From: a virus
Lineage: Duplodnaviria > Caudoviricetes
DNA length: 54,057 nucleotides
Direction: 5' to 3' (one strand)
Virus record (IMG/VR): IMGVR_UViG_3300048930_000256
Span: 1 to 54,057 of that record
This document shows, piece by piece, positions 3,896 to 21,943 of this stretch. Every line of letters begins with the position of its first letter. The first letter of the stretch is position 1. The notes below the pieces were generated by a model. The model made no database searches. It was not told the origin of the DNA and worked only from the letters and a program-made list of their open reading frames with translations. Both the position numbers and the translations under genes were made by a program.

Positions 3896-5275
3896 TTACG
3901 ATAGCCACCTTCGGTATTTCGCTATTGTTGCTACAGAGCGAGACTTACCAGCACCAGTCTTAAGCTGCGTATTCGACTTATCCCATTCTACACATGCAAC
4001 CATTGGTGCGCAGCTTGTCACAAGTGGGAAGAGCTTCCCTCTAGCCGTGTCAATCTGGTATGGGAACGGAGTGCATTTTCCATCGCAAGACATGAAGACC
4101 CTATTGGAGCGCCCGTCTATGGTAAGCGTTGCGTTTGATGGTATGTATGGAATCTTGATTTCAAAGCGCGGGCTTGGCCGCGAAGCGCACCACGCATCGT
4201 ATGATTCCTCATCGTCGATACACTCTAGCTCATCTGGGTTATCGTAGATTGACACAGTGACATTGCGTAGGCCAAGTTCTGTGAAGGCTATGCCATCAGC
4301 GTCTTCAGCTGTATCAAACCCACTGAATATGTCAATCTTAAGTGCGGTATCATAGCCAGCCGCGCCAATGTCGTTCACGCAGCAGCATTGCACAATCTTC
4401 TCCAGAGGCTCACAGAAACAGCTTGAAGGTGTGATTGTAGTCGGAGTAGGAGCAGATGCCGAGAAACAGGTACACAGCGGGTCTGTGATACATCTATCGC
4501 AGGCCGGCTTAGGTTCATTGCAGCACTCATCGCGGCAGAACGATGACCAGTCGAAGCACCTAGTAAATGCCTCTGGGTCTGCTACCTGTGTGCAGGCAAC
4601 GTCTTCACAGCCAAAGCTATAAGGTGATTCGGATTGAATAACGACGTTTACCTTCTGCGCTACACACGAGCAGGTGTCAAAGAATTCTTCTGGAAGAATC
4701 TTGATGCCATCGACAACGCCAGAGCTTTCCCATGACCTAAGACCAGTATCACAGCCTTCAGAGTCGTCGCAGCTACGGCGAAGCGTTAGCCGGTTCCCAT
4801 AACATGCGCCGCACGGGTCTTGGTCACAAATGCAAAGCTCGGTCTCAAATACTCTTCGCAGCCATTCGATGCCATAGTCTTGACCACGACATGAGGTAGA
4901 CAGGACAAGCATCTCAATGGTCATTGAGCGGCCTGCAAGACTCGCCCTGTTAAGAATTGTGCCTACATCAAAAGCTGGCACAGGCTCCCTACGAATGGTG
5001 GAGTCTGAGGCGCCCTCAACTTTGAGAATCATAGCGCCAAGGAATTCTGTTGATGCGCTATCGTTCGGGTCGTACCAAGGAGCTGGGTCTTCCTCTGGGC
5101 TGACAGGCGGAGTATTCATGTCATCAAGCGGGCATGAACACTCCAGCATCTCTGGCCGGCAATCTTCTGGGTACATGTCGTTCTCACACGCCCACTTATG
5201 GTAAGCGTATGTTCGGGCATTGTCGGCAAATACAGCGCAACCATATTGAGCAAAGCTATGACGAGTTGTTGTCAT
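3896..5275 (-). CDS. minor tail protein (distal-tail/Dit position), Cys-rich
   Basis: 459 aa directly after the tape measure; about 35 Cys by manual count; C-terminal IPYIPSNATLTIDGR segment resembles actinophage minor tail proteins. Confidence 0.75.
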   Translation of the reverse strand: MTTTRHSFAQYGCAVFADNARTYAYHKWACENDMYPEDCRPEMLECSCPLDDMNTPPVSPEEDPAPWYDPNDSASTEFLGAMILKVEGASDSTIRREPVPAFDVGTILNRASLAGRSMTIEMLVLSTSCRGQDYGIEWLRRVFETELCICDQDPCGACYGNRLTLRRSCDDSEGCDTGLRSWESSGVVDGIKILPEEFFDTCSCVAQKVNVVIQSESPYSFGCEDVACTQVADPEAFTRCFDWSSFCRDECCNEPKPACDRCITDPLCTCFSASAPTPTTITPSSCFCEPLEKIVQCCCVNDIGAAGYDTALKIDIFSGFDTAEDADGIAFTELGLRNVTVSIYDNPDELECIDDEESYDAWCASRPSPRFEIKIPYIPSNATLTIDGRSNRVFMSCDGKCTPFPYQIDTARGKLFPLVTSCAPMVACVEWDKSNTQLKTGAGKSRSVATIAKYRRWLS

Positions 5276-8200
5276 CTACCTGCTAACCCCCTGTACCTGT
5301 GACCTTATTCTAGCATCGAGTAGCGATACTATCGTAGCAGGGTCATTAGAATTTGTATTGACAACAATCTGCCGGTTGTCATTCACCATAGACCCCGGCT
5401 GACCAACAGCTCCACCAGAGTTATTAAGCGCATCGATAAGGTTGCGCAAATCCTTGGCAGAAATGACAGAGCCGTTTGTCGATGGTACGAACAGTTCCCT
5501 GCCGCGCTCGCCAACCGTGTACGGGGTCATGGCGTTTACTTTGCCGCCCTGCGCCCTGAAGTTTCCTCCGCCATACTGCTTCAGATACTTCATGACCTTT
5601 GCAACATACGCGATGGTTTCGCCAAACGATGAGAGTGCAATTGCAGCGTTGCCCGGCCCGGCGTTATACGCAGCAAGAGCCATAGGGATATTACCGTTGA
5701 AAGCTTTGAGCTGCTGCTTGATGTACTTAGCGCCGCCGATAGCGTTCTGGAATGGGTCAAGGATATTGTTCACGCCGAGGCTTGCGGCGGTGGCCGGCAT
5801 AAGCTGCATGAGGCCGCGAGCGCCAGCAGGAGAGCCGGCATTAGGATTGAATGACGACTCTGCCCGAGCTATAGCGGCGAGCAGGTTGAAATCTACGCCA
5901 GTGACTTTAGCAGCGTTGGCAAGCGCATCCTCGACCTGCTTTGAGGCTCCGGCAATGTCAGCCATCATCTTCTCATTGCCACGTATCCATCCAAGGTGAA
6001 GGTGGTCATAGTGGCCAGATGATTGCCACAAGACTTCATCGAAGAACTTGCCTTGGTATTTCCGTGCCCACGCCGCTGCACTTGACAGCTCGCCGAATGT
6101 GTTGCCACCGCCAAGGCCGTAGTCCATAGCAAGGCCCTGTACGTGCAGGGAGTTTGCAGCCCCACCGATAGCAGCGTTGTATGCTGGGTTGTTGTACCGA
6201 CGCATCTGGCTTGCAATGTTCGGGGTAATGCCAAACATTTTGCCGATAGCAACAGCCTGCGCGATAGTGTCTTCCATGCCTGTGGACTGACCAATGCCAC
6301 CAGCAGCAAAGCCTAGCGTTCCTGCTATAGGAGCAATGTCGGCAAAGAATTCCTGCGGGTCAAAGTCAAGGTCTGCTCCGGCATTTCCAATAAGGAATTC
6401 CGCAGACATCTCTTTGAATAACTTGTCTGGAATTGTGTGCTTGGCAAGGTCAGGCCCTACACTCTTTACCCATCCCTTGACTTCACCAAAGCCGTCTTCA
6501 AGACCGCGCTTAAATCCGTGCATCATAGCTTCACCGGCAGGGCGTAGCAATTGCTTGTCGTATGAGATTGGGCCTTTGTTATTCTTAATCCATGTAGCAA
6601 TACTCTTGACGAATGGCTGAACCTCTTTCATCCAGACATCTTTGATTCCGTCCCTGAATCCGAGCATGACTTGTGTGCCTGCGTATGCGGCTGCAACCTT
6701 GCCCTTCTTCAGTGTATCGGTAGCGCCGTTAAGCGCGGCGCGGGCAGCAGACCTAGCTCTACCAGCGGCAAGGCGCATACCAGCAGCAAAGCCGCCAGCG
6801 ATAGCCATACCAGCAGCAAACGCAGATGCGGTAGCGATAGGCGTCCATAGCACGATGCCAGCAGATAGTCCGAGAACGCTTTCACGCCCGCGCTTCTTCA
6901 TGAGGCCGGACGGTGATTTGATTTGCATGTACCGCGTGAACGAGCTATCAAAGACGTTCGCCATTGTCACGCCAGCTTTTTTCGCTGTAGGCTCTGATGC
7001 CTTAGTTCCTGCTAGAAGCCCCTGCGCAGATTGCTGTGCGTACTTAAAGAAGTTCTCTTTTGCTCTTCTCGGAACAACAGCCCTAGATTGTATGGCCGCT
7101 GTCTGCTTGGCAAGGTTGCCAATTGCTATTTCTATATTAGCCTTAGTTCTAACAAACCCATCTCCGCCGAACAGGAACTGGTTCTGCATACTAGCGGTTG
7201 CTTTGTTATACAGCTCTCTCTGCGCTGCTGTGAGTTCACCTACTAGAGCTGGGTCTCTAATAGCGTCCCTAACAGCTTTGATTTGCGGCTCTACTATCGA
7301 GCGCGGAGAGAATGGAGCCTTAGCATTACCAAGATTCTGTCCACCAATAGACACCCGAAGCTCTAGTGGGCTTTGCTGTATGAAGCTTCTCGCAGCCTTT
7401 ATCTCGGCGTCAATCTTTTTTAAGAGCTGATTGCGCTGGTTCTTTGGAAGGCCGAGCGTAAGAATTGTATTGCGCTCTTTCTGAAGAACCTGTATCTGTC
7501 CAAGAACCGTTTGAACGGCTTCTTGATTAAGCCTTGGTGAGAACGCAAGGCCACTCTCCATCTTCTTGTTGAATTCAGAGAATGTGAACTGCCTAATCTC
7601 ATCCAGACGCTTTGTCTGTAATTGCGAAAGCTTTTCACTGGCTTTAAGCTGGCCAATACCAAGGAGCGAGCGGAGGCGTTCACCCTCAGCATTTTTCAAA
7701 GAAGCCTTGGCGTATAGGTCTACCAGCTTCTTAGTTTCGTTGTTTACGCCAGCAATAGTCTTTGATGCAAGGGTATTAGCTGTACTCTTCTCAATCTCTT
7801 TGTTAGTTTCTTTGAGCTGCTTATTCAGCTCTTTCACGCTATCCTTGCTCTGCTTGAAAGCATCATTAAGCTTGTTCGCTGCTTCATCTGACTTGAAAAG
7901 ACTGTCGCTTGCACTCTTTAGCTCAGAGCGAATATCCTTTATCATGCCGCCGATTTTAGGAATACGTTCAAGCGGTTTGAGTGATTCTCTTACAACATCA
8001 AGTATGAAGCCCGGTATGGCCTTGAACGGTGCAGACAGGTAGTCGAACATGCTGCCGCCGATAAGCTTGATGCCTTCGAGGAAGTCGCCGCCAAGTATTG
8101 CCTTCACTCCACGAGTGAACTTACCTATAGCCCCGAGTGTTGAGCCGACAAACCTACCAACAGCTCTGCCAAACGCAAAGAACGCTCTTCCCATGAATGA

Positions 8201-11182
8201 AAGCACGTCTGAAATAATCGGCTTGATTGCCTTGAACAAATCACTGAGCTTTTCAAAAGAGACAGAAAGACCGTCTATTACCTCGTTCGCATCTTTATTG
8301 CCTTTGAGCGATTCTGATAGACCCTTCTTGAACCCCTTGAAGACATTAGTGACTACTTGCACAGCAGCCACGACGAGTCCAAATACAACTGCAAGCTTAG
8401 AGCCTGCCTTTACAATTCCAGCGATTATCGGGCGAATACTTTTCAGTAGACCAGACAGCTTGGATATTCCCGAGAGCTGCCTTGGCGCGGCAAGCGCAGC
8501 AACGCCACTAGCAGCAGCAGCCTTGCTTTTTCCGCCACCAGCGACAAGTGTTGCGCCGGCAGCAGACTGTGAAGCAGCGACAGCGGCCTGAGCAGCAGCC
8601 ATACCGCGTAGCGCGGTAGTAGTCCTGTTCACAACTTGCAAATACTGTGAGCCAGCGGTAGCCCATGAGGTAAGCGTGTTCGCCCATTTGAGTCCAATGA
8701 TGGCGACCATGATAGCTTTTAGCTTTTCAAGCTGTGAAGCGAGTCCGACTATAGGAAGAACGAATAGCCTTAGCGCTTTACTTGTAAGGAAAAGCGTGAC
8801 CCACGAACGTATAAACGCCCTGACAGCAGCGTCGTTCTCACGAATGAACTTAACAAGAGTGCCGAGCGCCCTGCCAATTCTAGGAAGCGTGTTTTCCGCA
8901 AATCTTCCTAGCGCCTCGAACGCCTTGCCAAGCACAGCAAAGAATCCCATGTTAGAGCCAGCGCCAAACGCCTCGCTCCTAAACTCTGTGAACATTCCTG
9001 ATATACCTTTAAGGAATGATGCGTACCCCTTCTCTAATGAATTGAAGAATGATGCGCCTTCTCCACCAAACGCGAAGCGCTCGATAGCTGGAACGAAGTT
9101 TTCAGCAACAGCATTTCCTATAGCAATTGCCCTGTCCTCCAATTTTGTGAACAGGGATACAGAACCCTCCATCTCGCCATTAAGCTGCTTGAAAGTGTCT
9201 CGAAGTGAAAGGCCGATAGGCTCTGCCGCCCTTCGTGCAAGAGCGCCAATTTCGTTTGTAAACTGCTCAAACTGGAAGGAGAGTGTGTTGGTGAATACAC
9301 TAGCCTGTCGCTCTGTTGCCCCAGTAGCAGACTTTATTTGCGCTTCAAGGGCGTTGATACCATCCATTCCCATAGAAGAAATCTGTGGAAGAATCTGGAT
9401 AAGCCCTGCGCCAGACTTCTCAGTGAGGCCAAGTTCTTTACGCAGCCTTGCTAATCCTTGGCTACCCTCAGCCTCCCTAACCTTCTCGAATTGCTCGGCC
9501 ATCTGGACAAGCGTTTTGGTGAATGGAATTGTTTTCCCGTTTACCCTGCCAACTTGTATGCCGTACTTCTCGAAGGCTGCGGTTGTCTCTGGTGTCTTGG
9601 TAGACGCCTTGTTTATTTCACGGATGAGGATGCCCATTTGCTCACCGGCTTTGAGGCCGCGAACATTGGCTTTCGCAAATAGCGATAGAATTGTTAGCGT
9701 CTGAGAAATCTCTTGACCATACGCCCTAAACGATGGCGCTGCCCTGTTAGCAAACGCTTGCGCAACCTCTGTGGCTGATGCGTTGGTAGCGTTCGATACA
9801 AACGTGAACTGGTCTGTAAGGCGGGTAAGGTTCTTCATCTCCTCACCAGATGCGAAGATCGAGCCGGTCAGATGCTCGGTCGCTTCAGCGAGGTCTATCT
9901 GTTCGTTTTGTGCAAACCTAGAAACAGTGCCAAGAGTTGATTCAATCTGCTTGATGTCTAGGCCGGCCTGTGCAAGAGCCTTTGCGCCCTCTGCAACCTC
10001 TGTTGTGTTGAAGATGGTCTCAATAGCAACCTGCTCAGAAACTCTAAGAATCCTGTCGCCAAGCTGTGCCACAGAGCGCTCAAATCCTTTTGCCCCATCT
10101 TCGCCGCGAGACATAGCCTCAACAAAAGCGTCTGATGCTAGAACGCCTACGGCGCGAGCCGCTGCCTGTTCAGCCCTAGCGAAAGAAACTATGGCGCTGC
10201 CCGATATAGCGGCAAACGAGCCAGCTACTCCTGCCGTGAAAATACCAAAGCCTGTTGTCAGCCTTCGCAGAATTCTCGTGGTAGTTGCATCGAACTGTGA
10301 AAGGTCGTTTCGCAGGATTCGTAGTGTAGCCCTGTGTGACCCTTGAATCGATGCTTGCGCCCGCTCATTTATGAGAACTCTTTGGGCTGCGAACCTCTGG
10401 TCTTGCAGGAGCTGCTTACTTCTAAAGCGAGCCTCCTCCATAGACTGAGCATCGAGGCCAAGCTTCTTCGCGGCAAGTAAGCGTCCTTCAGTTGAAGCAG
10501 CAGAGGAAACTCTGATATCAGCAGCAGCCTTTGCCTTGGCAGCCTCGCGCTCGATGACCTTCGCTGCTTCAGCTTCAGCCATTCGAGTTTTGTTCTGGTA
10601 CAGCGTATCTATCCGTGCTTGCAGCGCGGCAGCAGTAGCAACAGCTTTAGCCCCAGCCTTGGCTATAGACTTCTCATCTAGGTCTATTGGTATATCAACT
10701 GGGTCGCCTTTGAGATTTACTTCAAGCTGCTTCACCTTCATGCGAAGCTCTCGAACAAGCTCCATTTTCTCGGTGTCTAGGTCAAGCTCGACACGAATCT
10801 TTGGCGGCTTAGTCTTCGCCTCTTTGAGTTTCCTGTTCGCATCCTTCAGCGCAGCGCGGGCATCTCGGGCTAGAACATTTAGGCCAACATTCAGAGTAGG
10901 CGGGTTCTTCAGCGTTTTAAGCTGTGCGTTTGCCTCTCTAATTGCAGCGGCGCCAGAGCCTCTTCGAACCTTCAGGTCTACAGGAATTGTGACAGGGTTT
11001 TTCTCAGCCTGCGCTTCAGCCTCTTTTTGGACAGACTTTACAGCGCCCTTTTTGAGATTCAGAACTACAGGAATATCGGCGACAACACCCTTTGTGGAGG
11101 ACTCTATTGCAGCCTGAAAAACCTTCCTATCAACATCGGGAAGAAGTTCAACGAATAACCTACCTGCAATCTCACCAGCCAC
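5276..11182 (-). CDS. tape measure protein with C-terminal M15-like peptidase and SLT transglycosylase domains
   Basis: 1968 aa, Ala-rich and helical, follows the chaperone genes. Motifs: NAAIGGAANSLHVQGLAMD..HYDHLH (M15-like) and AESSFNPNAGSPAGARGLMQLMP..AAYNAGPG (SLT). Confidence 0.95.
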   Translation of the reverse strand: MAGEIAGRLFVELLPDVDRKVFQAAIESSTKGVVADIPVVLNLKKGAVKSVQKEAEAQAEKNPVTIPVDLKVRRGSGAAAIREANAQLKTLKNPPTLNVGLNVLARDARAALKDANRKLKEAKTKPPKIRVELDLDTEKMELVRELRMKVKQLEVNLKGDPVDIPIDLDEKSIAKAGAKAVATAAALQARIDTLYQNKTRMAEAEAAKVIEREAAKAKAAADIRVSSAASTEGRLLAAKKLGLDAQSMEEARFRSKQLLQDQRFAAQRVLINERAQASIQGSHRATLRILRNDLSQFDATTTRILRRLTTGFGIFTAGVAGSFAAISGSAIVSFARAEQAAARAVGVLASDAFVEAMSRGEDGAKGFERSVAQLGDRILRVSEQVAIETIFNTTEVAEGAKALAQAGLDIKQIESTLGTVSRFAQNEQIDLAEATEHLTGSIFASGEEMKNLTRLTDQFTFVSNATNASATEVAQAFANRAAPSFRAYGQEISQTLTILSLFAKANVRGLKAGEQMGILIREINKASTKTPETTAAFEKYGIQVGRVNGKTIPFTKTLVQMAEQFEKVREAEGSQGLARLRKELGLTEKSGAGLIQILPQISSMGMDGINALEAQIKSATGATERQASVFTNTLSFQFEQFTNEIGALARRAAEPIGLSLRDTFKQLNGEMEGSVSLFTKLEDRAIAIGNAVAENFVPAIERFAFGGEGASFFNSLEKGYASFLKGISGMFTEFRSEAFGAGSNMGFFAVLGKAFEALGRFAENTLPRIGRALGTLVKFIRENDAAVRAFIRSWVTLFLTSKALRLFVLPIVGLASQLEKLKAIMVAIIGLKWANTLTSWATAGSQYLQVVNRTTTALRGMAAAQAAVAASQSAAGATLVAGGGKSKAAAASGVAALAAPRQLSGISKLSGLLKSIRPIIAGIVKAGSKLAVVFGLVVAAVQVVTNVFKGFKKGLSESLKGNKDANEVIDGLSVSFEKLSDLFKAIKPIISDVLSFMGRAFFAFGRAVGRFVGSTLGAIGKFTRGVKAILGGDFLEGIKLIGGSMFDYLSAPFKAIPGFILDVVRESLKPLERIPKIGGMIKDIRSELKSASDSLFKSDEAANKLNDAFKQSKDSVKELNKQLKETNKEIEKSTANTLASKTIAGVNNETKKLVDLYAKASLKNAEGERLRSLLGIGQLKASEKLSQLQTKRLDEIRQFTFSEFNKKMESGLAFSPRLNQEAVQTVLGQIQVLQKERNTILTLGLPKNQRNQLLKKIDAEIKAARSFIQQSPLELRVSIGGQNLGNAKAPFSPRSIVEPQIKAVRDAIRDPALVGELTAAQRELYNKATASMQNQFLFGGDGFVRTKANIEIAIGNLAKQTAAIQSRAVVPRRAKENFFKYAQQSAQGLLAGTKASEPTAKKAGVTMANVFDSSFTRYMQIKSPSGLMKKRGRESVLGLSAGIVLWTPIATASAFAAGMAIAGGFAAGMRLAAGRARSAARAALNGATDTLKKGKVAAAYAGTQVMLGFRDGIKDVWMKEVQPFVKSIATWIKNNKGPISYDKQLLRPAGEAMMHGFKRGLEDGFGEVKGWVKSVGPDLAKHTIPDKLFKEMSAEFLIGNAGADLDFDPQEFFADIAPIAGTLGFAAGGIGQSTGMEDTIAQAVAIGKMFGITPNIASQMRRYNNPAYNAAIGGAANSLHVQGLAMDYGLGGGNTFGELSSAAAWARKYQGKFFDEVLWQSSGHYDHLHLGWIRGNEKMMADIAGASKQVEDALANAAKVTGVDFNLLAAIARAESSFNPNAGSPAGARGLMQLMPATAASLGVNNILDPFQNAIGGAKYIKQQLKAFNGNIPMALAAYNAGPGNAAIALSSFGETIAYVAKVMKYLKQYGGGNFRAQGGKVNAMTPYTVGERGRELFVPSTNGSVISAKDLRNLIDALNNSGGAVGQPGSMVNDNRQIVVNTNSNDPATIVSLLDARIRSQVQGVSR

Positions 11183-12036: not shown

Positions 12037-12945
12037 CTACATGTATTTTGCGGCTACTTCTCTCAGTGCCCGCCTGAGTATATCATATCCGTTGTATTTG
12101 CTTGTGGATTTGGCACCGAGATAATACTTGCCGTTCTCGCCTCTCATCATATACCCTTTTCGCTTAATTCTAAAAGGCCGGCTGTCGCGCATCCTCCCGC
12201 GCCTGTCTTTCCATGTAAATCTTTTTGAGTATCCGCGCCTCTGGTCTACAATCTGGCCACCCCTACTCTTCGTGCTTGAACGCTTTCCAGCAACTCCTCC
12301 CGACAATTTCAATGGGTCAAACTTTCCAGAAACCTGCCTGCGCTTCTTAGCCTCTGGGTCTCTACGGAAATACCTAGCCTGTGCAGATGCGGCGGCCTGA
12401 TATTCCTTGCTGGCAGAAACCCATCCCTTAGCCCGCTTCTGTGAAGCTGTATAGCTTTTGTTCATCGCGTTTATACGCTTCGCGTTAGCGACTGATATCG
12501 GGATATGGAATGGCTTCTTTCGTGCCGGAACCTTGGCACCTTCAGCCCCAGTGCCGCGCTCAACCTTGTTCGCAGACGGAGCAAGGTTATACACAGCAAC
12601 TCTCGTGTTCGACCCCTTGCCAGTGACAATAGCATTTGTAAATGATGACTGGTACTGTCTATCCCCTGCTCGCTCCCTGCGGAAAGCGTATGTTGGCCTA
12701 GGTGTGACCCTTCCGCCAACCTTCCTCGCCCTAAGCAGGCCGCCCTTGTTCCTTGGCCTGCGAGGATTCTCTGACGCTAAACCCTCAGCGGTTTCTGAGA
12801 TGAGATTACCAATCTCTACAAGGTCTACTCTTACCCTGCGCGTCTTCTGAAGCTTAGTGACGCCAGCAGTTCCCCTGCCACCAACAGTGACTTCACGGTA
12901 GACAGTAGCCTTAAAGTTCCTCGATGCTATAAATCTGTTCCCCAC
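12037..12945 (-). CDS. highly basic neck/tail-completion protein (HK97 gp10-like position)
   Basis: ANKVERGTG and C-terminal ILRRALREV resemble gp10-type motifs; very Arg/Lys-rich; lies between the terminator-like gene and the chaperone. Confidence 0.5.
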   Translation of the reverse strand: MGNRFIASRNFKATVYREVTVGGRGTAGVTKLQKTRRVRVDLVEIGNLISETAEGLASENPRRPRNKGGLLRARKVGGRVTPRPTYAFRRERAGDRQYQSSFTNAIVTGKGSNTRVAVYNLAPSANKVERGTGAEGAKVPARKKPFHIPISVANAKRINAMNKSYTASQKRAKGWVSASKEYQAAASAQARYFRRDPEAKKRRQVSGKFDPLKLSGGVAGKRSSTKSRGGQIVDQRRGYSKRFTWKDRRGRMRDSRPFRIKRKGYMMRGENGKYYLGAKSTSKYNGYDILRRALREVAAKYM

Positions 12946-13422: not shown

Positions 13423-14180
13423 TAGCCATGCCTCACATTGCGAGTTGAGCGCAATGCGTCAAACATTCTGGCCTTTCGGCAGCGCCCATGAACAGTAAGA
13501 GCGTGGTCGATAATTGGGTTGCCAGTAAGACCTTGCGCGAGAAGCTGTACCACATCATGCACTTCTATATCTACGCCGCGTCTGGCAACACTACGAACGT
13601 GCGCTGGAAGAGCGCAATTGTTTCCACCATTACAAGCTTTCTTCAACTCACAGACAAGCTCGGCGCAGGCCATCTTCAGCTCAACAGGAGGCTCACGGCC
13701 AGTCGCGTACGAAACAACAACCTCTTCAGAAGCAGAACCGCTACTAAGCGGAAGTCCAAGATTGTTCGATGTCGGCCACGGAAGCCCGTCAGTCTTGACT
13801 ACCCGAGCGTTCTCATCGAGGCGGTACAGTGAAGAGTCAAGCTCAACGCCGTTAATTGTCACGCTCTCCACAGAAAGAATCGGGAAGTCGCTGGTTAGCT
13901 CGATAGCGTAGTATGCGCCGCAGCCACAAGGGTTGCGATTACATGAGCAGCAATCAAGACACGGGTAAATAACCTGTTCACAAACGCCCGGATACCGATA
14001 GCATGTACGAGCATAGAGAAGATTTGATGCTGCAAGTATGAGCTGTTCGTCAGTCCATTTGAATACGAGGGAGCTGCTTTCACCATCACAATCGATGGAT
14101 TCAGCCTCCCCCTCGCAACATAAATCAGATGGTTCAATCCAGCCAGCACCACAAACAGTTTTAGGGTCGCGGTAGGCCAC
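13422..14180 (-). CDS. head-to-tail adaptor, Cys-rich
   Basis: 252 aa with about 17 Cys; motifs ASNLLYART, VESVTING, CALPAHVRSVARRGV and TGNPIID, as in cluster-B-type adaptors. Confidence 0.75.
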   Translation of the reverse strand: MAYRDPKTVCGAGWIEPSDLCCEGEAESIDCDGESSSLVFKWTDEQLILAASNLLYARTCYRYPGVCEQVIYPCLDCCSCNRNPCGCGAYYAIELTSDFPILSVESVTINGVELDSSLYRLDENARVVKTDGLPWPTSNNLGLPLSSGSASEEVVVSYATGREPPVELKMACAELVCELKKACNGGNNCALPAHVRSVARRGVDIEVHDVVQLLAQGLTGNPIIDHALTVHGRCRKARMFDALRSTRNVRHG

Positions 14181-14192: not shown

Positions 14193-14870
14193 CTAGTCTT
14201 GTGCTGGAACTGTCACGAATCCGCATGTTCCTTCAAGAGTCTCAGTGATAGAGTCATCGAAGAACTCCATGTAGTGAGACTGTGTACCAGCAGGAACAGT
14301 AGCGAAATCGTAAGGGCTGTCGTTGAAAGGACCGTCTGCCCAGTTAGCAATCTCGGCTGGTGATGTTCGCCCTTCAAACTTGACGATTCGGAATGGGTCT
14401 TCCTTCTCATCTGTTGGAAGCTTGAATCGAACTTTTGGCAATACGATTCGGCGATACTTATGGTCAGCTTCGCAGCTTTCATCAGGTACAGTCTCGAACA
14501 GCTCAACGCTAATCCAAGGAAGGCAGTTGAGTCCTTCTACTTGATACCAACCGATGTTCTCAGAACCGTTGTTGATGAGCGTCTGGCCAGTAAGAAGATT
14601 GGTCAGCTCATAGTCTGGGTTGAGAAGTTCAAACTCAATGTTGATGTCTTTGAGTTCATCACACTTCTTGGTTTGCCAGCACTTCTTGCCGCCCTCGTTT
14701 TTCAGTACGGTTTCATCTCCGTCCTCAATGTTCTTTGTCATTACAACATTGCGGAAGCAGTTGAAGATGTATCCGTTGGTTGCTCCTGCAAGTGGAGCGT
14801 CAGAACATTCATCGACAAGCGCAATACGAATTGCGTCAATGTGTCCTGCTGGCAAACATACCTGTGTCAT
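14193..14870 (-). CDS. major tail (tube) protein
   Basis: 225 aa; RIALVDEC, EDGDE..KN..GKKC and DYELTNLLTG resemble actinophage tail-tube proteins; has its own promoter and RBS. Confidence 0.8.
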   Translation of the reverse strand: MTQVCLPAGHIDAIRIALVDECSDAPLAGATNGYIFNCFRNVVMTKNIEDGDETVLKNEGGKKCWQTKKCDELKDINIEFELLNPDYELTNLLTGQTLINNGSENIGWYQVEGLNCLPWISVELFETVPDESCEADHKYRRIVLPKVRFKLPTDEKEDPFRIVKFEGRTSPAEIANWADGPFNDSPYDFATVPAGTQSHYMEFFDDSITETLEGTCGFVTVPAQD

Positions 14871-14899
14871 TATCTTTCCCCCTAGAAAGCATATTTGGC

Positions 14900-14914: not shown

Positions 14915-14929
14915 GCCGTGAATGATGGG

Positions 14930-15277: not shown

Positions 15278-15278
15278 G

Positions 15279-15494
15279 CTACTCCTGTCCTAGTATGGTT
15301 TCGCCGATGCTTCGAGCGCTGTAGCCAGTTCTATGTGCAAATAGCCTAGGAACGGGCACAACCACTACATGATGCCCCTCATTGGCATTAGCGTGGATTT
15401 CCTTTGTCGCTTCTGCTACAGCAGCATCTCTTTGCCGCATAGCAACCTCGCCACATTGAGCGCACAGCGTATCGTAAAAAGCTATTTGAGACAT
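15279..15494 (-). CDS. hypothetical protein (CxxC)
   Basis: ATG 15494 overlaps the upstream TAA; GGAGGG RBS. Confidence 0.6.
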   Translation of the reverse strand: MSQIAFYDTLCAQCGEVAMRQRDAAVAEATKEIHANANEGHHVVVVPVPRLFAHRTGYSARSIGETILGQE

Positions 15495-16669
15495 TAGACC
15501 CTCCACCAAGCGCCCTGCGCTCCGACGAGTTTTACAGACTCATACGGAGTGAGTCCGATATTAATTGTTAAAGCGTTGTCAATCAATGATGCGTCGATGG
15601 TATCAACAGTGACAGTACCTGTAGCGCCATTAACCTCTTTGAGAATTACAACATCTCCGTCGCCGCTGACCTCTGGTATTGTGATTGTGAACGGAGCGGC
15701 GGCAGCGTCATACAAAACAATTGTGCCAGCATCAGTAAGAACCGTGTTGGCAGACACTACGCCTTCTACATTGTAGATTACCCGCTCTGGAAGCTCTATT
15801 GCTGGGGAGGCGGCAAGTTCATCGATGGCAGCCTGAACGTCATCTGCAACAAGACCGCTGACAACATTGCTATAGCGCAGGGCAGATGCGTCTGTAAAGA
15901 ACTGGTCAAATACTCCTCCGCCCATCTGCGGCTGAAGTATGCCCTCATTTAGATTGATAACAACACTCTGGATGAGGCGAACAAGTGTTGTTGCAGAGCT
16001 TACAAAAACATCATCAGCAAGGCTCGGTGTGTTGCCGCTCATGCTGTATGCAAGGAATCCAGCAAACCCGTCTTCTATTTCAACAACGGGGACGCCTCCG
16101 TATATTCCAACCTGAGTTGTGCTTGCTATTGCCGAGCCATCGGTGACGCCTATGACAAAAAATGAAGTTGTATTTGGAACAAATATAAATGGAGCGTTCG
16201 TGCTGGATATAGCACTGGCCCTTGCAATTGCGATAACCGTGTTCTCTGCAATGTAAATAGGAGAGCTGCTGCTAGACCAGAAAATGATGCCCTGCGTAAT
16301 AACGCAGTTCACCATGCTTGTTATAGTCACACCATCAGTGAACTCGACCGGCATACTGAACGGGTTGCCGTTGCCAAGGAATGTGATATTGCTGAAATCC
16401 CACGCACCGGCAGGAACAGTCTCTGGCTGTTCGATAAGCACAGACTTCGGCCCTTCCACAAGAGCCATCGCGTCAAACATGTCCTGCCAGTTGTTATACC
16501 TGTTGCCCTGCTGTGTGCCAGAAGAGTTATAGATATATGTGACGTATGGGGCGCTTCCCCAAACCGCATCGCCATTCGTATCAGTGATGAGTATTTGTAG
16601 CGGGTCTCCGCCTTCAGGAAGCCCGCCTCCGCCGTTAGAACAGGAGCATGGAGGAACAACAGCCATCAC
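15494..16669 (-). CDS. fibre-like protein in the head module (possible capsid fibre/decoration)
   Basis: GGDPLQIL..NGDAVW and SGLVADDVQAAIDEL fibre-type motifs; beta-rich central region. Confidence 0.6.
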   Translation of the reverse strand: MMAVVPPCSCSNGGGGLPEGGDPLQILITDTNGDAVWGSAPYVTYIYNSSGTQQGNRYNNWQDMFDAMALVEGPKSVLIEQPETVPAGAWDFSNITFLGNGNPFSMPVEFTDGVTITSMVNCVITQGIIFWSSSSSPIYIAENTVIAIARASAISSTNAPFIFVPNTTSFFVIGVTDGSAIASTTQVGIYGGVPVVEIEDGFAGFLAYSMSGNTPSLADDVFVSSATTLVRLIQSVVINLNEGILQPQMGGGVFDQFFTDASALRYSNVVSGLVADDVQAAIDELAASPAIELPERVIYNVEGVVSANTVLTDAGTIVLYDAAAAPFTITIPEVSGDGDVVILKEVNGATGTVTVDTIDASLIDNALTINIGLTPYESVKLVGAQGAWWRV

Positions 16670-16675
16670 AACCCC

Positions 16676-17461
16676 CTAACAAAGCTCAGTGAGAATTGCG
16701 AAGGAGCAGCAAGGGTCGAACCTAAGAATAGCGAGCCTTTCAAGAAGGACAATCTGCTCATTCTGGATATGCTCAAAATTAGCGATGTCGAACTGCTCGG
16801 CAACCGCATACTCCACTGGTCCGGTAGCATACAAATATGCCTGCCCATCAGTAGGCTCTGCGCCGCCAGTAGGAGCCTCGTTCGGGTAATCATCAACGAT
16901 GAGCTTGTGCCCACCGATACGATACCCCTCGCCGTCAAACTTTACCAAATCATTCTTCATCAAGAATGGGAGCGCCACTCTAGGGGCGTGAATCCAAACT
17001 CCTCCGCCGCCGCAATCATCAGATGCAGAGAGTAGGCCAGCAACGCTACCAGCAATACAAGCAGGAGTGTCAGGCGTAATATCAGTAGCAGACGAAACAA
17101 TGTCTGGGTTTCCAACATTCACATCAGAGAGAACAAGTTCATGCGCAAGTGAGCGGGAAAGCCCACGGGTCAAAGCGTTCTGCGCAAGCAGACGAAGCTC
17201 TGCCTCATCAGGAGCGCCGCTACAACGAAAACCGCTATATATGAGGAATGGGTCGAACTCTGTCGGCTCACCCTTATCAATGATGTTCTGCTTGTCCTCC
17301 CCATACGAACAGCCCCAGCGGTCAGCGCCGCCACAGCTAGGCGTAAAGGTCACACCACCAGACCAGTCGTATCCCGACGGTAGCTCCCGAGCGGCATCAG
17401 CGAGACCGCCCGGGGCTACGTCAGGAAGAATAGGTGGAAGGTACTTGTTAGTGACAGTCAC
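16676..17461 (-). CDS. second capsid protein (pentamer-type, Rosebush-like)
   Basis: 261 aa directly after the large capsid gene; FDPFLIY..C, IHAP, YATGPV and N....ER motifs. Confidence 0.7.
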   Translation of the reverse strand: MTVTNKYLPPILPDVAPGGLADAARELPSGYDWSGGVTFTPSCGGADRWGCSYGEDKQNIIDKGEPTEFDPFLIYSGFRCSGAPDEAELRLLAQNALTRGLSRSLAHELVLSDVNVGNPDIVSSATDITPDTPACIAGSVAGLLSASDDCGGGGVWIHAPRVALPFLMKNDLVKFDGEGYRIGGHKLIVDDYPNEAPTGGAEPTDGQAYLYATGPVEYAVAEQFDIANFEHIQNEQIVLLERLAILRFDPCCSFAILTELC

Positions 17462-17474
17462 CTAAGAACCGCCC

Positions 17475-19085
17475 TTAGCAAGCTTCTGGCTCTACGAGAG
17501 CTGTTGAGCCGCCAGTACCAGCGCCTGTGAGTTCGAGTGTGAAGCTCGGCACTTCTGGAACCATCTTCTCAAGGAACTCATGTCCTTCAAGGAAGTATTG
17601 CACTTGGTTCTGGAGAGTAAGAGCCGCGTCACGCTGGAAGCCAGCCTCAACAAGAACGCTCTCGCCTCGTGTGTACGCATTGACAGGAACGATGTTAAGC
17701 GTCCATGTGCCGATTGCGGTACAAGGGTCGAAGGCTACAGTGCTGCCCGGGTCTACATAGAGACCAGCAGCGGCAAGATAGTCAGCTTCTGCGGTGACAT
17801 CGGCATCCATTGCCTGTACGATTTGACCAACGCCAAGCTCTCGGAGCTGTGCTTCGATTGCAGCGCGGTTAGCGCCACGAGAGAAGCCGCGTCGATGTTC
17901 GTCAGCGATAAGCGCTTCCATCATTCCGGGAGGAAGGATGAGAGCGTAGTCGCCCCAGTTGATGCGGGTGCCGTAGCCTGCAACAGCCACAAGATGACCG
18001 AGTACAGCTTCAAGCTGGTTAAGCAGGCCAACGCCGTTGCCAAGGCCATAGGTAAGAACCGTGCTGTCTGCGCGAAGCGTGTTGAGCAGTTCTTGCTCTG
18101 CGGTTCGTGCGTACACGATTCCAAGCTTTGTGATGAAGTCATCAATAAGCTCTGGATGGCTGATTTGCTGGAAGATAGAATGGCGACCAGCAGCAACGAT
18201 TGCGTATGGGTCTACCTGTGTTGGCTCTTGGCAGGTAAGGTCTACATACGGCTTCCATGTTGATGGCGTGTCAGCTTCAACAGCAGCTTGGTCTACACAC
18301 GTCCACTTGGTCACGCCGGCAGCTACGTCTGCGAGCGCAAGGCCCTTGACATAGTTGAATGGACCTTGTACTGGAACAGCGCGGAAGAGGCTGGCAACAG
18401 GGCGAGCATCTTCACCAACAGAGCGAATTGTCTTGTCAGTCTCGAACGGGCCGCAATAACAAGCTGCTTGGATTGGCGATGCAAGAACAGCACCTTTCTC
18501 TGCTGCCTGCGACATGATGATTGTGTTCTCAATCGCGCTGTTGCGACCAGATACAATCTTCTGCCCAGCAATCTCTCGGTTGATGTTAGCGAATGAATAC
18601 CGCCCATCACCACTCTTAGAAGCTAGTCGGTGAACTCGCTCCCAGTCAGAGACTTCCATCTTCGAGCCGACGCTCATTCCGTAAGACGAGCTGGAAGCAA
18701 TGATTGTCAATGCTGGACCTTCGCCACCGCCATCGAGGTTCTGCTTTTTTGGTGCAGCGCTCTGCACGGCAGCAGCAATCGCCTCTGGCTCTGGGGTTTC
18801 GGCTGGTGCCTCTTCCTTAGCTGGCTCTTCAGCAGGAGCTTCAACTTCAGCAGGAGCTTCCACTTCTTCAGCGGGAGCCTCTTCTTCAGCAGCCTTTGGA
18901 GCTTCTGGAGCTTCAGCGGTCAGCTCTGCTACGAGCTTTGCGTCTTCAATCTTTGCTTCGAGTGCGATGCGCTCATCTCGAAGTGCGCGAAGCTCTGCTC
19001 GCCCATCTTCATCGATAACGTCTAGCTTGGCGATTTCACCAGCTCGCGCTCGGATTTCTTCCATTCGTTTTAGTAGCTCTTCCAC
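17475..19085 (-). CDS. major capsid (hexamer-type) protein with N-terminal scaffold-like region
   Basis: 536 aa; N-terminal coiled coil and EAPAEE linker, then AACYCGP.ET, Q..HPELI and ARTAE motifs; follows the protease. Confidence 0.8.
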   Translation of the reverse strand: MEELLKRMEEIRARAGEIAKLDVIDEDGRAELRALRDERIALEAKIEDAKLVAELTAEAPEAPKAAEEEAPAEEVEAPAEVEAPAEEPAKEEAPAETPEPEAIAAAVQSAAPKKQNLDGGGEGPALTIIASSSSYGMSVGSKMEVSDWERVHRLASKSGDGRYSFANINREIAGQKIVSGRNSAIENTIIMSQAAEKGAVLASPIQAACYCGPFETDKTIRSVGEDARPVASLFRAVPVQGPFNYVKGLALADVAAGVTKWTCVDQAAVEADTPSTWKPYVDLTCQEPTQVDPYAIVAAGRHSIFQQISHPELIDDFITKLGIVYARTAEQELLNTLRADSTVLTYGLGNGVGLLNQLEAVLGHLVAVAGYGTRINWGDYALILPPGMMEALIADEHRRGFSRGANRAAIEAQLRELGVGQIVQAMDADVTAEADYLAAAGLYVDPGSTVAFDPCTAIGTWTLNIVPVNAYTRGESVLVEAGFQRDAALTLQNQVQYFLEGHEFLEKMVPEVPSFTLELTGAGTGGSTALVEPEAC

Positions 19086-19117
19086 CGAAGTCTCCCCTTT
19101 TGTTTACGGCGTTGCGA

Positions 19118-19132
19118 TTCGTTCAGAGTATA
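19118..19132 (-). promoter_or_regulatory. late promoter motif TATACTCTGAACGAA
   Basis: Matches the element upstream of the major tail gene; GGGGAG RBS downstream. Confidence 0.65.
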
Positions 19133-19157
19133 AGCACGAATCTTTTATCGTTGTTGT

Positions 19158-20411
19158 TTATTCGGACAAAATAGCAGCGGTTCGCGCAGCGACAAGAGTG
19201 GCGACAGCTTCCTCTAGCGCGGCGATACGAACAACAGCATCGTCAATCTTTGCCATTACAGCTTCGTCCATGCCACCTTCTTTTCCGCCCATATCGGCAG
19301 AAGCGGTAATGTTGGCACCATCACAGTCACAGGCTGAAGCTTCAACCTTTCCGCATGGGCACTTCTCTTCCGCTTTTTGACAGTCGCATGGCGCAGAGCC
19401 ACAAGTTGTTTCTGGCATGGTATCCCCCTGTTGCTTTTCAGTCACAGCATACATCGCAAGTATATTGCCATTAACATCCATAGCGGTAGCTGCAATGGAA
19501 CCTTTTTCTGCGCGGGTCATGACCCCTTCGGCCCATGACTGTCCAGCATCTCCACCCCACAGCTCCCACGCTACTTCACCCGGAGTCGGCTTATCGTCTT
19601 CACGGTTCTTTGCCGAGCGGTCTACGCTGTGCCGAGCAAACCATGCCCGCATACGGGTCAGCTTGTCTAGCGATTGCTTCTCGCCAGAAGCCATGCTCTT
19701 CGCTTCTGATACAGTCTTTGGCCTAAGCCCAGCCCCAGAGTGCCCCTCTTCGTGCCATTTAAGTCCACGCTTTACGGCTTCGACAACGCCAGCCGGCGGT
19801 GAGAATGTTTCTCCAGAGCTGATACTCGCAGCTATGTTCTGCATCTGCCCGCTTGTCAGTGACACGTCGCCAGCGTTCGCCATCGGATAGCCGGGAATGT
19901 TCACGAAGCAGGCTCCAGCAAAGTCATAGCCGGATTCGCTTTCTCGCCACGAGCCTAGCCACCTCCAGTCGCCAGAGATGGGACTTGCGCGAATCTTTGC
20001 AATATCGAGTTCGTTCACGTCTGGCCAGAGTGCGCCGGCAAACCATAATCCCTTATCATCTTCGCCATAGCGAACCCGCATTAGCTGGGTATTGGTATTC
20101 TCATAGAATGATGGGACAGCAGCGTTCGCCTCATCAAGCGATGCGTGTCCAGCACCGCCACCGATATTCGCTGTGGCAATTATCGTTCCGTCTTCCAGCT
20201 CTGTCTCGCCTTGATGCGCGTAGCCGTAATCAGACGGAGAACCCTTTGGTGGGCGTAGGCAACCTTCGAGTCCAGAGTGGCACGTATCCCATAACGCTAT
20301 GTATCCATAGACTCGGCCATCTGCGGTGATTGTGATGCGGCGGTCTGTTGGTATCTCTTCTGGTGGAGAGAACCATTCGGCTGGTGGTTTGATTGGGATA
20401 TCCATACCCAT
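19158..20411 (-). CDS. capsid maturation protease with an extra internal domain
   Basis: GRVYGYIALWDTCH, GED..GLWFAG and SGDWR motifs; between portal and capsid. The true start may be a leaderless ATG at 20405. Confidence 0.8.
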   Translation of the reverse strand: MGMDIPIKPPAEWFSPPEEIPTDRRITITADGRVYGYIALWDTCHSGLEGCLRPPKGSPSDYGYAHQGETELEDGTIIATANIGGGAGHASLDEANAAVPSFYENTNTQLMRVRYGEDDKGLWFAGALWPDVNELDIAKIRASPISGDWRWLGSWRESESGYDFAGACFVNIPGYPMANAGDVSLTSGQMQNIAASISSGETFSPPAGVVEAVKRGLKWHEEGHSGAGLRPKTVSEAKSMASGEKQSLDKLTRMRAWFARHSVDRSAKNREDDKPTPGEVAWELWGGDAGQSWAEGVMTRAEKGSIAATAMDVNGNILAMYAVTEKQQGDTMPETTCGSAPCDCQKAEEKCPCGKVEASACDCDGANITASADMGGKEGGMDEAVMAKIDDAVVRIAALEEAVATLVAARTAAILSE

Positions 20412-20420
20412 AGAATAACC

Positions 20421-20451
20421 AAAGGGGGAAGCCAGCAGCAGCTCCCCCCTT
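20421..20451 (-). terminator. intrinsic terminator-like hairpin after the portal gene
   Basis: AAGGGGGGAGC-8 nt loop-GCTTCCCCCTT followed by TGGTT on the minus strand. Confidence 0.55.
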
Positions 20452-20511
20452 GTGGCACCCTAGGTTGGTACGTGCCCCCCCAGACACAGGCATACTATAG
20501 CAGATGCCCTT

Positions 20512-21846
20512 TTACCTTTCTAGGTTCCGGTCTCCTACAGGCTCCCCCTCCGAGTCTCTAAAGTTCGAGCTTGGCATACGAACGGCTCCGTCTGGCTGAT
20601 TGCCGAGCCTGCCTGTAGAGCGCGGGTCATTGGCGTGTGGATGAATAAACTTGTCGTCCATGCCAGCGTAATGCAGCGCTCCTTCTCCAGATAGTGCGCC
20701 TGTTGCAAACATTCTGATAGCCGCGTCTGTGCGGTCTGGCTTCACGACCATCTCGGTGGCATCGACAATGACGTGCGCATCACCCTTGTCTCCAAGGTTC
20801 TTGGCTGTTGGATACACAAAGTTTTCCTCTACTGCCTTAGCGATGATATCGACTATTGGTATGAGGTAGTAGTTCGCTGTGTTCTGGTCTACCTTCCAGC
20901 CGGCCCAGTGATTCGTTCCGCCCATGCCGGTGATTACTTCTGTTGGCAGGTCGATGCCATCACCGTACCTCTTGGCATACGAAGACATGCGCGAGGCGAA
21001 AGCGTCTGCATCGTCAGCCCGCTCTGTCATGAGATGACGAAGGCCGTCAGAGAATTCAGAGCTACCAAACATGATGACAGGAACATAAGCGTCCTGCGTG
21101 TCCCTATCCCTAATGCTGTCGCTCATAGCGCCGCGAAGCCGCTGCTCGAAGTGCGCCTGTGTTCCCGGCTCTGGCTCTCCGCCGTCTAGGTCAGGCCCTT
21201 CAACAAACTCATCATTTGGAATGTAGATGATTCCTGCGCCTGCAAGGCGACTGGTGCCTATTGCTGTATCTGCAAGCTGGTGGACGTACATTGCTTCGAG
21301 TACATCTAGGAGCGCTTCATGTGTAGACCACGCCCTGTCTTCTCTGTCTGGGTCTGGCCGCCATACGCGAAACCACTTCCATTCATTGCCGAGCGGAGCC
21401 ATCTTCCCATTATCACCACGTACGAGAAGCGGTTTGTTCTGGTTCTCGTACTTGTAGTCGCCCTTGCCGATAACCTTCCAAGCTGTCTTCTTTGCTATAC
21501 GATCATATCTATAGGCGAGTATTACTTCTCCGACTAGGAAGATATTTGATGCTGCCCTGCCAATGTCTAGGCTCGATAGCTGCCGCGTTAGCGCGCTGTC
21601 ATTTGTGCCAGTGCCTGTGCAGACAAGCCTACATTTCTTTGTCGTGTTGTTTACGAAGAGCGATGCGTGTGCAACCTCTGGGATGCTTTTGCGAAAGGCG
21701 AGTGTTCGCTGCTGCCAATTCTCGGTGCGGCGGATTATCGACTCTGGGTTTGCTGGGTTTCCCCCGCGTACCACGCCACCACTTGCAGCTACGATTGGCG
21801 GCTTACCGCTAGTCTTTTTTCTTTTGTCAAATATCCCCATGCCCAT
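20512..21846 (-). CDS. portal protein
   Basis: 444 aa; WQ..., RVWRP.P, SRLAGAGII.IP, D.P.E...G.G..NHW..W motifs of cluster-B-type portals. Confidence 0.85.
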   Translation of the reverse strand: MGMGIFDKRKKTSGKPPIVAASGGVVRGGNPANPESIIRRTENWQQRTLAFRKSIPEVAHASLFVNNTTKKCRLVCTGTGTNDSALTRQLSSLDIGRAASNIFLVGEVILAYRYDRIAKKTAWKVIGKGDYKYENQNKPLLVRGDNGKMAPLGNEWKWFRVWRPDPDREDRAWSTHEALLDVLEAMYVHQLADTAIGTSRLAGAGIIYIPNDEFVEGPDLDGGEPEPGTQAHFEQRLRGAMSDSIRDRDTQDAYVPVIMFGSSEFSDGLRHLMTERADDADAFASRMSSYAKRYGDGIDLPTEVITGMGGTNHWAGWKVDQNTANYYLIPIVDIIAKAVEENFVYPTAKNLGDKGDAHVIVDATEMVVKPDRTDAAIRMFATGALSGEGALHYAGMDDKFIHPHANDPRSTGRLGNQPDGAVRMPSSNFRDSEGEPVGDRNLER

Positions 21847-21858
21847 ATCCTACTCTAA

Positions 21859-21929
21859 AGGCGATGACGGGACTCGAACCCATGTTGCAGGTTTTGCAGA
21901 CCTGTGCCTAGCCGCTCGGCCACATCGCC
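21859..21929 (-). tRNA. tRNA-Cys (GCA)
   Basis: GGCGATG/CATCGCC acceptor stem; CAGGT-CTGCAAA-ACCTG anticodon arm; GGTTCGAGTCC T-arm; U73 discriminator typical of tRNA-Cys; no encoded CCA. Confidence 0.95.
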
Positions 21930-21943
21930 ATGCCCCTAGTATA

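Follow-up and report, generated by a model that had tools for sequence, protein, structure and literature searches.

The record IMGVR_UViG_3300048930_000256 of the IMG/VR virus database, hereafter called the window, is 54,057 bp long, has a G+C content of 49%, and carries an exact 127-bp direct repeat at both of its ends; it is the complete genome of an uncultured siphophage. Since this terminal repeat joins the two ends, the late genes form an array on the minus strand that runs from the portal gene (21846) down to position 270 and resumes at 54057 into the fibre genes. Several of the virion proteins encoded in this array are rich in cysteine, and a tRNA-Cys gene stands directly before the portal gene. 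Here, we describe these proteins and this tRNA, and we argue that the window probably encodes a virion of the disulfide-linked kind known from the Mycobacterium abscessus siphophage Jabs and the prophages of Cluster MabL, accompanied by an accessory tRNA-Cys. We assign this reading as a whole a probability of about 0.65.

Virion genes and their cysteine content

The features of the late array and of the tRNA locus are collected in Table 1. Proteins of the window matched PHROG families 776 (portal), 777 (head protein), 779, 783 (adaptor), 792 ("major tail"), 837 and 838. The labels used in a preliminary description of this DNA (pentamer, tail tube, adaptor, terminator-like protein and a protein in the position of the distal tail protein, Dit) are reasonable, since these matches and the predicted folds agree with them. 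Two HK97-fold capsid genes lie side by side. The 536-amino acid (aa) product is the one that matches the major head protein family, while the 261-aa product, for which a penton role is putative, is modelled by AlphaFold2 (AF2) with a predicted local distance difference test (pLDDT) score of 95.5, and its top Foldseek matches are all HK97-fold capsid or encapsulin structures (best E 1.6e-11). Likewise, lambda gpU, T5 p142 and the DT57C neck are among the top Foldseek matches of the 155-aa terminator, with E-values from 4e-6 to 2e-5. The tail-fibre or collar-type gene at the far end of the record belongs to the late array by way of the circular junction at the terminal repeat. No integrase was seen among the window open reading frames (ORFs) that were searched.

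A DNA-level search with the 18-kb region against cultured phages gave no matches, and a scan of viral contigs with the portal as the single query protein gave no relatives. In a tblastn search with the portal, the best matches were 21-26% identical, and all 30 listed matches were to phages of Actinomycetota. Sequence searches of the PDB with the Dit profile, the adaptor, the major capsid protein (MCP) and the tube protein gave no matches.

Cysteine is generally among the rarest residues in proteins. In the window, we counted 35 cysteines in the 459 residues of the Dit-position protein, 17/252 in the adaptor, 12/155 in the terminator, 8/225 in the tube protein and 8/261 in the penton-type protein, and all five counts are identical to those reported previously. 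The cysteine motifs quoted from protein termini are also present as reported: MARCGSC, MTQVC, MSLCGCFDQCSC and (M)MAVVPPCSC at the N-terminal end, and HSCC, TELC and PEAC as the last residues before a stop codon. The broader claim that the structural proteins are unusually cysteine-rich is borne out for these five proteins and fails for the virion module overall. Together, the five contain 80 cysteines in 1352 residues (5.9%), compared with 239 in 15,286 (1.56%) elsewhere (Fisher p = 2e-20). The virion module as a whole contains 113/7037 (1.6%, or 2.2% when the tape measure is left out), compared with 2.1% in the other ORFs, and it includes proteins with few or no cysteines, namely the tape measure (0/1968), the 302-aa protein, both chaperones (none in each) and the portal (2/444). 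The share of cysteine in the whole ORF set of the phage is approximately 1.9%; these genome-wide percentages are approximate because the ORFs were called by a crude longest-ORF method, and some of the calls are probably spurious.

Table 1. Late-array genes and tRNA-locus features of the window. G001 and G004 are IMG/VR relatives, L098 is the closest relative found, and prophiT36-1 is the M. abscessus prophage used for comparison.
Feature	Position	Strand	Basis
Portal protein, 444 aa, 2 Cys	20512..21846	-	phrog_776, E 8e-47; BLASTP vs prophiT36-1 portal, 6e-21
Capsid maturation protease / scaffold-like protein, 10 Cys	19158..20411	-	PHROG matches; BLASTP vs prophiT36-1 protease, 2e-16
Major capsid protein, hexon type (MCPh-like), 536 aa, 6 Cys	17475..19085	-	phrog_777; MAFFT
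Second HK97-fold capsid protein (penton type, MCPp-like), 261 aa, 8 Cys	16676..17461	-	phrog_779; AF2; Foldseek
391-aa protein with N-terminal MAVVPPCSC, possibly fibre or decoration	15494..16669	-	Sequence; G001 orthologue N-terminus MSPIPPDCSDCSC
Major tail (tube) protein, 225 aa, 8 Cys	14193..14870	-	phrog_792; BLASTP vs prophiT36-1 major tail, 1e-6; MAFFT
Head-to-tail adaptor, 252 aa, 17 Cys	13422..14180	-	phrog_783, E 9e-34; BLASTP vs prophiT36-1, 4e-15; MAFFT
Tail terminator, 155 aa, 12 Cys	12955..13422	-	Alignment of 16 relatives; AF2 pLDDT 81; Foldseek
302-aa protein, 0 Cys, no family match, between terminator and chaperones	12037..12945	-	Sequence
Tape measure with C-terminal lytic domain, 1968 aa, 0 Cys	5276..11182	-	PHROG matches; count
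Distal tail protein (Dit), 459 aa, 35 Cys	3896..5275	-	phrog_838; BLASTP vs prophiT36-1 gene 69, 9e-8
Tal-like minor tail protein, 360 aa	2813..3895	-	phrog_837, E 3e-40; BLASTP vs prophiT36-1 gene 70, 6e-6
Tail-tip protein, 116 aa, N-terminal MARCGSC (motif kept in G001 and G004)	270..620	-	Sequence
Tail-fibre / collar-type protein, N-terminal CxCx3CxC (MSLCGCFDQCSC)	52164..53264	-	PHROG tail-fibre matches
tRNA-Cys, anticodon GCA, no encoded CCA	21859..21929	-	ARAGORN; Rfam RF00005, 62.8 bits
TATACT hexamer ending 8 nt ahead of the tRNA; it merely fits the consensus, lacks a -35 element and does not recur elsewhere	21938..21943	-	Sequence
G+C-rich terminator-like hairpin, directly upstream of TATACT and tRNA	21951..21968	-	Sequence; promoter/terminator scan
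13-pair hairpin between portal and protease genes	20422..20451	-	Sequence; slot of the L098 tRNA-Cys

Correspondence with the disulfide-linked virion of Jabs

Jabs is a siphophage of M. abscessus with a T=9 capsid built of a hexon protein, MCPh (594 aa), and a penton protein, MCPp (257 aa). According to the portion of the preprint available to us (bioRxiv 10.64898/2026.07.24.740622), on which all statements about Jabs bonds below are based, its cryo-EM structure contains approximately 1,700 disulfides that link the capsid, the connector, the tail tube and the adhesion device or tail tip. Cysteines near the N-termini of its fibre proteins (C6 of ORF61 and C12 of ORF62) are bonded to Dit. As to timing, the authors suggest that bonding takes place during lysis or after it. 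Another article reports a high similarity of Jabs to Cluster MabL (PMC12993973). For our sequence comparisons, prophiT36-1 (OQ417966.1), a Cluster MabL prophage of M. abscessus that was reached through the adaptor search, stood in for Jabs. The lengths of its proteins match those of Jabs (594, 257, 352, 180, 478 and 345 aa), and every cysteine position that the available portion of the preprint names is present in it.

Six of the nine window proteins compared with prophiT36-1 show significant similarity in BLASTP: portal (6e-21), protease (2e-16), adaptor (4e-15, 31% identity), tube (1e-6), Dit (9e-8) and Tal (6e-6). The penton-type protein reaches an E-value of only 0.21, yet it is collinear with its counterpart over 254 residues. 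The two genomes also have a gene order in common: portal, protease, a long MCP, a second HK97-fold protein of approximately 260 aa, three small genes, tube, adaptor, terminator, chaperones, tape measure, Dit, Tal and fibres with N-terminal cysteines, with no separate stopper. The interval between terminator and chaperones holds a 302-aa gene in the window and a 115-aa gene in prophiT36-1. Tape measure and chaperones are free of cysteine in the window and in the Jabs/prophiT36-1 type alike. The window differs in that its proteins are only 21-31% identical to those of Jabs/MabL, in that its tube protein lacks the peripheral domain of the Jabs type (225 vs 352 aa), and in that several of its proteins contain more cysteine: 35 vs 15 residues in Dit, 17 vs 10 in the adaptor, 12 vs 4 in the terminator and 8 vs 1 in the penton protein.

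Several of the cysteines that form bonds in Jabs have a cysteine opposite them in the window. In the MAFFT alignment of the tube protein, C19, C60, C131 and C234 of the Jabs type correspond to C22, C64, C133 and C216 of the window, and three of these (C22, C133 and C216) are cysteine in all eight aligned sequences; in Jabs, C19 and C131 form the bond between rings. For the hexon protein, C271, C347 and C587 correspond to window C211, C285 and C536, with the first two being cysteine in 7/7 aligned sequences and forming the hexon-to-hexon bond of Jabs. The cysteine of the penton-to-hexon bond, C97 of MCPp, corresponds to window C80. Nine of the ten adaptor cysteines of prophiT36-1 align to window cysteines (MAFFT). 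In Dit, 7 of the 15 Jabs-type cysteines do so (C305, C311, C322, C337, C340, C388 and C454, corresponding to C259, C262, C268, C286, C288, C352 and C422), and these include the Dit-Dit pair C322-C337, the two fibre anchors C305 and C340, and the pair C388-C454.

The cysteines of these proteins are also conserved among relatives. Of 40 Dit homologues, 34 full-length close ones contain 31-38 cysteines, and more distant ones contain 28, 28 and 19; in an alignment of 20 Dit sequences, 10 of the 26 invariant columns are cysteine. Eleven of the 12 terminator cysteines are invariant among 16 sequences, and the remaining one is at least 90% conserved. Among 70 diverse aligned relatives of the penton-type protein (mean column identity 24%), 69 retain C80 and 68 retain C51. 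Five IMG/VR relatives, which we designate G001-G005, encode orthologues as rich in cysteine as those of the window, and N-terminal CxCx3-4CxC or CxxC motifs head fibre-type proteins in the window, G001, G002 and G004. Such motifs fit the mode by which the Jabs fibres are anchored to Dit. Among the variable cysteine columns of Dit, three pairs co-occur perfectly (297/428 in 19/19 sequences, 175/223 in 29/29 and 46/247 in 36/36), which is suggestive of bonded pairs; this pattern is confounded by phylogeny, and we do not use it as a main argument. In addition, the tube gene is doubled in some relatives: one (L101) has copies at 7950-8660 and 9340-10014 with 10 cysteines each, and G004 has copies at 17740-18414 and 18470-20152, one of which is lengthened to 560 aa.

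Given that several cysteines bonded in Jabs have counterparts in the window that hardly vary among relatives, we favour a disulfide-linked particle, a reading that is supported by homology to a solved particle. The preliminary description had proposed a virion crosslinked by disulfides formed after lysis, or by Zn sites. The homology, the synteny and the aligned bond cysteines support the disulfides, and we infer the bonds themselves and their timing. Several observations weigh against this reading. The disulfides of the window are predicted from its genes, and the Jabs structure comes from a preprint. Neither the hexon MCP nor the terminator of the window finds a match among the prophiT36-1 proteins by BLASTP. 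The positions of the Jabs MCPh bond C281-C563 are occupied by R221 and E511 in the window, which makes that bond impossible; C79 of the Jabs tube is replaced by L83, C93 of the terminator aligns to S56, and 8 of the 15 Jabs Dit cysteines have no aligned window cysteine. Most of the extra window cysteines have no solved counterpart, and the matching cysteine-rich loops of the Jabs adaptor (residues 68-102 and 191-197) are not resolved in that structure. Finally, the window proteins contain CxC, CC and CCC clusters that could bind metal.

This last point raises an alternative to disulfides, in which the extra cysteines of an adaptor loop (C60-C87), a Dit insert (C129-C299) and the protease (a CxC run at 337-363) ligate Zn, Cu or an Fe-S cluster and thereby stabilise these parts. 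Such clusters are dense, the protease run places seven cysteines in 27 residues and resembles a metallothionein-like Pfam family at E 0.006 (below the cut-off), and the corresponding loops of the Jabs adaptor, which that structure does not resolve, leave room for metal binding. Lambda gpL-type tail-tip proteins are a precedent for Fe-S binding at the tail tip. Those cysteines that can be aligned to Jabs are, however, disulfide-bonded there, and some variable Dit columns co-occur in pairs, with the reservation about relatedness given above. Moreover, CxxC pairs are few in the five cysteine-rich virion proteins (five, compared with six in the Zn-ribbon-like protein at 22047-22979 alone); Dit has two, the terminator one and the adaptor one, with Dit C155-C158 and adaptor C74-C77 among those counted. 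We consider metal ligation an unlikely explanation.

If the virion is disulfide-linked, then the conserved cysteines would most likely form bonds within and between subunits under the oxidising conditions that prevail at or after lysis. By analogy with Jabs, C211-C285 would link capsomers and penton C80 would bond to C211; C22-C133 would join successive rings of the tube; C268-C286 would join Dit to Dit; and the N-terminal cysteine peptides of tail-tip and fibre proteins would be anchored to Dit C259 and C288. The lineage of the window has approximately twice the cysteine of Jabs in Dit, adaptor, terminator and penton protein, and the extra residues may form further disulfide knots. The disulfide-linked virion is an already known kind of particle, and the window would be a more cysteine-laden case of it.

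The Jabs/MabL-type lineage, to which the virion module of the window probably belongs, is widespread in phages of Actinomycetota, and the cultured carriers of these families all infect Actinomycetota. Streptomyces phage TP1604 (Woodruffvirus) and related phages of Streptomyces, Microbacterium, Gordonia and Arthrobacter carry PHROGs 776, 777, 779, 783, 792, 837 and 838 in the order of the window, with proteins that are 22-33% identical to those of the window. The cultured TP1604 has a cysteine-rich subset like that of the window (10 cysteines in gp14, 10 in gp16, 15 in gp17, 12 in gp18 and 24 in gp21), while its portal has one and the gene annotated as tape measure none. Our limited literature search found no discussion of the cysteines of TP1604-type actinophages. 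Disulfides also stabilise particles of other families. The PF08813-family tail tubes typified by gp39 are cross-linked by disulfides that likewise stabilise contacts between rings or components, according to the accessible part of that report (Protein Sci 2026, PMC13576161), and Agrobacterium phage Milano and cyanophage Pam3 are cited in the Discussion of the Jabs preprint as having disulfide-stabilised particles. The protein families of these three are unrelated to those of the window, none of the three is tied to a tRNA, and we claim no membership for the window among them. A single, weak hint of a host outside the Actinomycetota comes from a 5.7-kb contig (CAYUGQ010000150.1, designated L121) with a portal 55% identical to that of the window, which is binned in a Candidatus Sumerlaeota metagenome-assembled genome (MAG).

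The tRNA-Cys gene and its distribution

Both ARAGORN and Rfam detect a tRNA-Cys and no other tRNA in the 54,057 bp of the window, which confirms that it is the only tRNA of this genome. It lies 12 nt before the portal ATG (21846) and 8 nt after the TATACT hexamer, exactly as had been described. The gene looks intact: it has a full-length cloverleaf that covers model positions 1-71 of 71, and it ends with a U in the discriminator position. The proposal that it is the first unit of the morphogenesis transcript is not supported, given that co-directional genes lie upstream (22047-24476), that a hairpin precedes TATACT, and that a sigma-70 scan listed no promoter on the 5' side of the tRNA. The motif TTTATACTAGGG occurs a single time in the window, a frequency not above that expected by chance. 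The phage itself encodes a sigma-70 family factor with regions 2 and 4 (43271-43999, plus strand), so its late promoters may not resemble host sigma-70 sites. The nearest upstream gene (22047-22979, minus strand) encodes a 310-aa protein with a MerR-type helix-turn-helix and six CxxC pairs. Homologues of this protein directly adjoin the portal in two relatives (L099 and L121), at the junction that the hairpin and the tRNA occupy in the window.

To describe the distribution of the tRNA, we defined a set of closest relatives as those with a portal at least 55% identical and with both portal flanks visible, which gave five sequences including the window. Two of the five have a tRNA-Cys: the window, before the portal, and its closest relative found (L098), after the portal. 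In L098, the tRNA lies one gene further down, 18 nt before the protease ATG. The two tRNAs are identical in 50 of 72 alignment columns, and both retain the anticodon loop CUGCAAA. The remaining three (L099, L100 and L121) have none; in L099, the upstream gene adjoins the portal, and in L121, the portal-protease hairpin is present without a tRNA. No tRNA of any kind was found in G001-G005 by Rfam on the whole records or by ARAGORN, the portal gene being visible in four of these five. Beyond the window and L098, we found no tRNA-Cys in 125 loci (1.86 Mb), in which other loci carry single Met, Ser, Pro, Gln, Leu or Arg tRNAs. TP1604, unlike the window, yielded no tRNA in the 41 kb scanned, and the MabL prophages, again unlike the window, are listed with zero tRNAs in the accessible part of a published table (PMC9934374). 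ARAGORN calls a tRNA-Arg(TCG) in prophiT36-1 (8713-8786, complement) inside an annotated hypothetical gene; given the zero in that table, this is probably a false call. Exact searches with the window tRNA against viral and genome contigs, and with the L098 tRNA against genome contigs, gave no matches and thus no hint of a host; a BLAST comparison of the tRNA with the MAG in which L121 is binned matched only the D-arm of a tRNA-Ser.

Because equally cysteine-rich relatives have no tRNA, tRNA-Cys is neither necessary for nor characteristic of a cysteine-rich virion. The preliminary description had expected a lone tRNA-Cys and cysteine-rich virion proteins to occur together in related phages; instead, it is absent from the cysteine-rich G001-G005, L099, L100 and L121 and from the 41 kb of TP1604 that were scanned. 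That the closest pair of genomes both have a tRNA-Cys nevertheless hints at a non-random link. Intact tRNAs within expressed gene arrays are likewise known from phages in which they serve as codon or amino-acid supplements or as spares against host defences, according to the accessible parts of two reports (PMC10264068, PMC11555353). The window differs from these cases in that its tRNA is single and specific for cysteine.

Several roles for this tRNA must be weighed. The preliminary description had it co-expressed with the morphogenesis genes to meet a late demand for cysteine, that is, a dedicated tRNA at the head of the operon that is needed for the surge in cysteine use that the virion imposes. 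The short distances to the portal and protease starts in the window and L098, the confinement of tRNA-Cys to these two among the 125 loci, and a proteome of approximately 1.9% cysteine all agree with this proposal. It is contradicted by the tRNA-free cysteine-rich relatives and MabL prophages, by the terminator-like hairpin and the missing promoter call just upstream, and by the demand itself. A rough estimate per virion, weighted by Jabs-type copy numbers and a ring number derived from the tape-measure length, puts cysteine at 1.8% of residues, which is not above the 2.1% of other genes. A dedicated late tRNA is thus quite unlikely. A different kind of link to cysteine would be counter-defence, with the phage replacing a host tRNA-Cys that has been cut by a tRNA-Cys-specific nuclease, a nuclease that would hit a cysteine-rich phage particularly hard. 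According to the two reports cited above, tRNAs encoded by phages can serve to escape defences aimed at tRNAs; another describes a mycobacterial toxin that cleaves exclusively tRNA-Cys and stalls ribosomes at Cys codons (PMC13096801), and there are two slots in which tRNA-Cys has been found. No nuclease of this kind is linked to the host of this phage, the tRNAs of the window and L098 keep an identical CUGCAAA anticodon loop, and most relatives manage without a tRNA, so that we regard counter-defence as very doubtful. At the other extreme, the tRNA may have no link to cysteine usage, being a passenger acquired beside a hairpin or a point at which RNase P and RNase Z trim the portal mRNA. Its sporadic occurrence would be explained, as would its position directly after a G+C-rich hairpin in both phages, given that such a hairpin stands alone in L121 and at 20451-20422 of the window; unrelated single tRNAs (Met, Ser, Gln, Pro, Leu) in other relatives point the same way. 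However, if specificity were irrelevant, it would be improbable for the two closest genomes each to carry a lone tRNA-Cys, in different slots and with only 50 of 72 columns identical; both tRNAs are also intact, high-scoring cloverleaves. A passenger, too, is an unlikely account.

We favour an accessory role. On this view, an intact tRNA-Cys gene was inserted between a hairpin and a structural gene, and it probably tops up the tRNA-Cys of the cell while a proteome with approximately 1.9% cysteine is expressed. It would be an optional extra rather than a required or defining partner of the cysteine-rich virion.

A DUF1360 protein and the reach of a probable disulfide-linked lineage

The window also encodes a 139-aa membrane protein of the DUF1360 family (47986-48405, plus strand; PF07098, E 7e-11; phrog_781) with a conserved SCxxC(L/M)S(V/F)W motif. 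By tblastn, homologues are present in 4 of 14 relative sequences (G001, G002, G004 and G005), and in G001 and G005 they lie just upstream of the portal. This protein is a candidate thiol oxidoreductase. Pfam searches found no oxidoreductase of the thioredoxin, DsbA or Erv type among 40 window ORFs, which included about half of the small ORFs. One may imagine a hyper-cysteine branch of the Jabs-type lineage that depends on cysteine decoding and thiol oxidation. In such a branch, tRNA-Cys would have been captured more than once, in two portal-adjacent slots, because the host tRNA-Cys is limiting or attacked by a nuclease, and the DUF1360 protein may catalyse disulfide formation in the virion at lysis, so that supply, decoding and oxidation would together make up a "cysteine economy" module. 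We regard this larger scheme as rather improbable.

Apart from these genes, the large terminase (45550-47973, plus strand; 807 aa) has Hom_end and LAGLIDADG_3 matches at residues ~260-341, before its Terminase_6N and 6C domains, in what looks like an intein-type or homing-endonuclease insertion.

The penton protein is matched by 435 representative clusters (50% identity) at E <= 0.001, and the families described here are common to hundreds of cultured actinophages. If the virion of the window is indeed disulfide-linked, then virion-wide stapling by disulfides would be a trait that a very large phage lineage has long conserved, rather than a curiosity of one M. abscessus phage, and uncultured branches would carry twice the cysteine load. 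Invariant cysteines in the N-arm and E-loop of the MCP, in the tube and in Dit, together with N-terminal CxC fibre anchors, would then provide a sequence signature for redox-sensitive, covalently stabilised particles, and such a prediction would be useful in storing and formulating phages and in engineering nanotubes. The patchy occurrence of tRNA-Cys, in turn, would allow a modest test in nature of whether demand for an amino acid, as opposed to codon bias, can drive the capture of tRNAs by phages.

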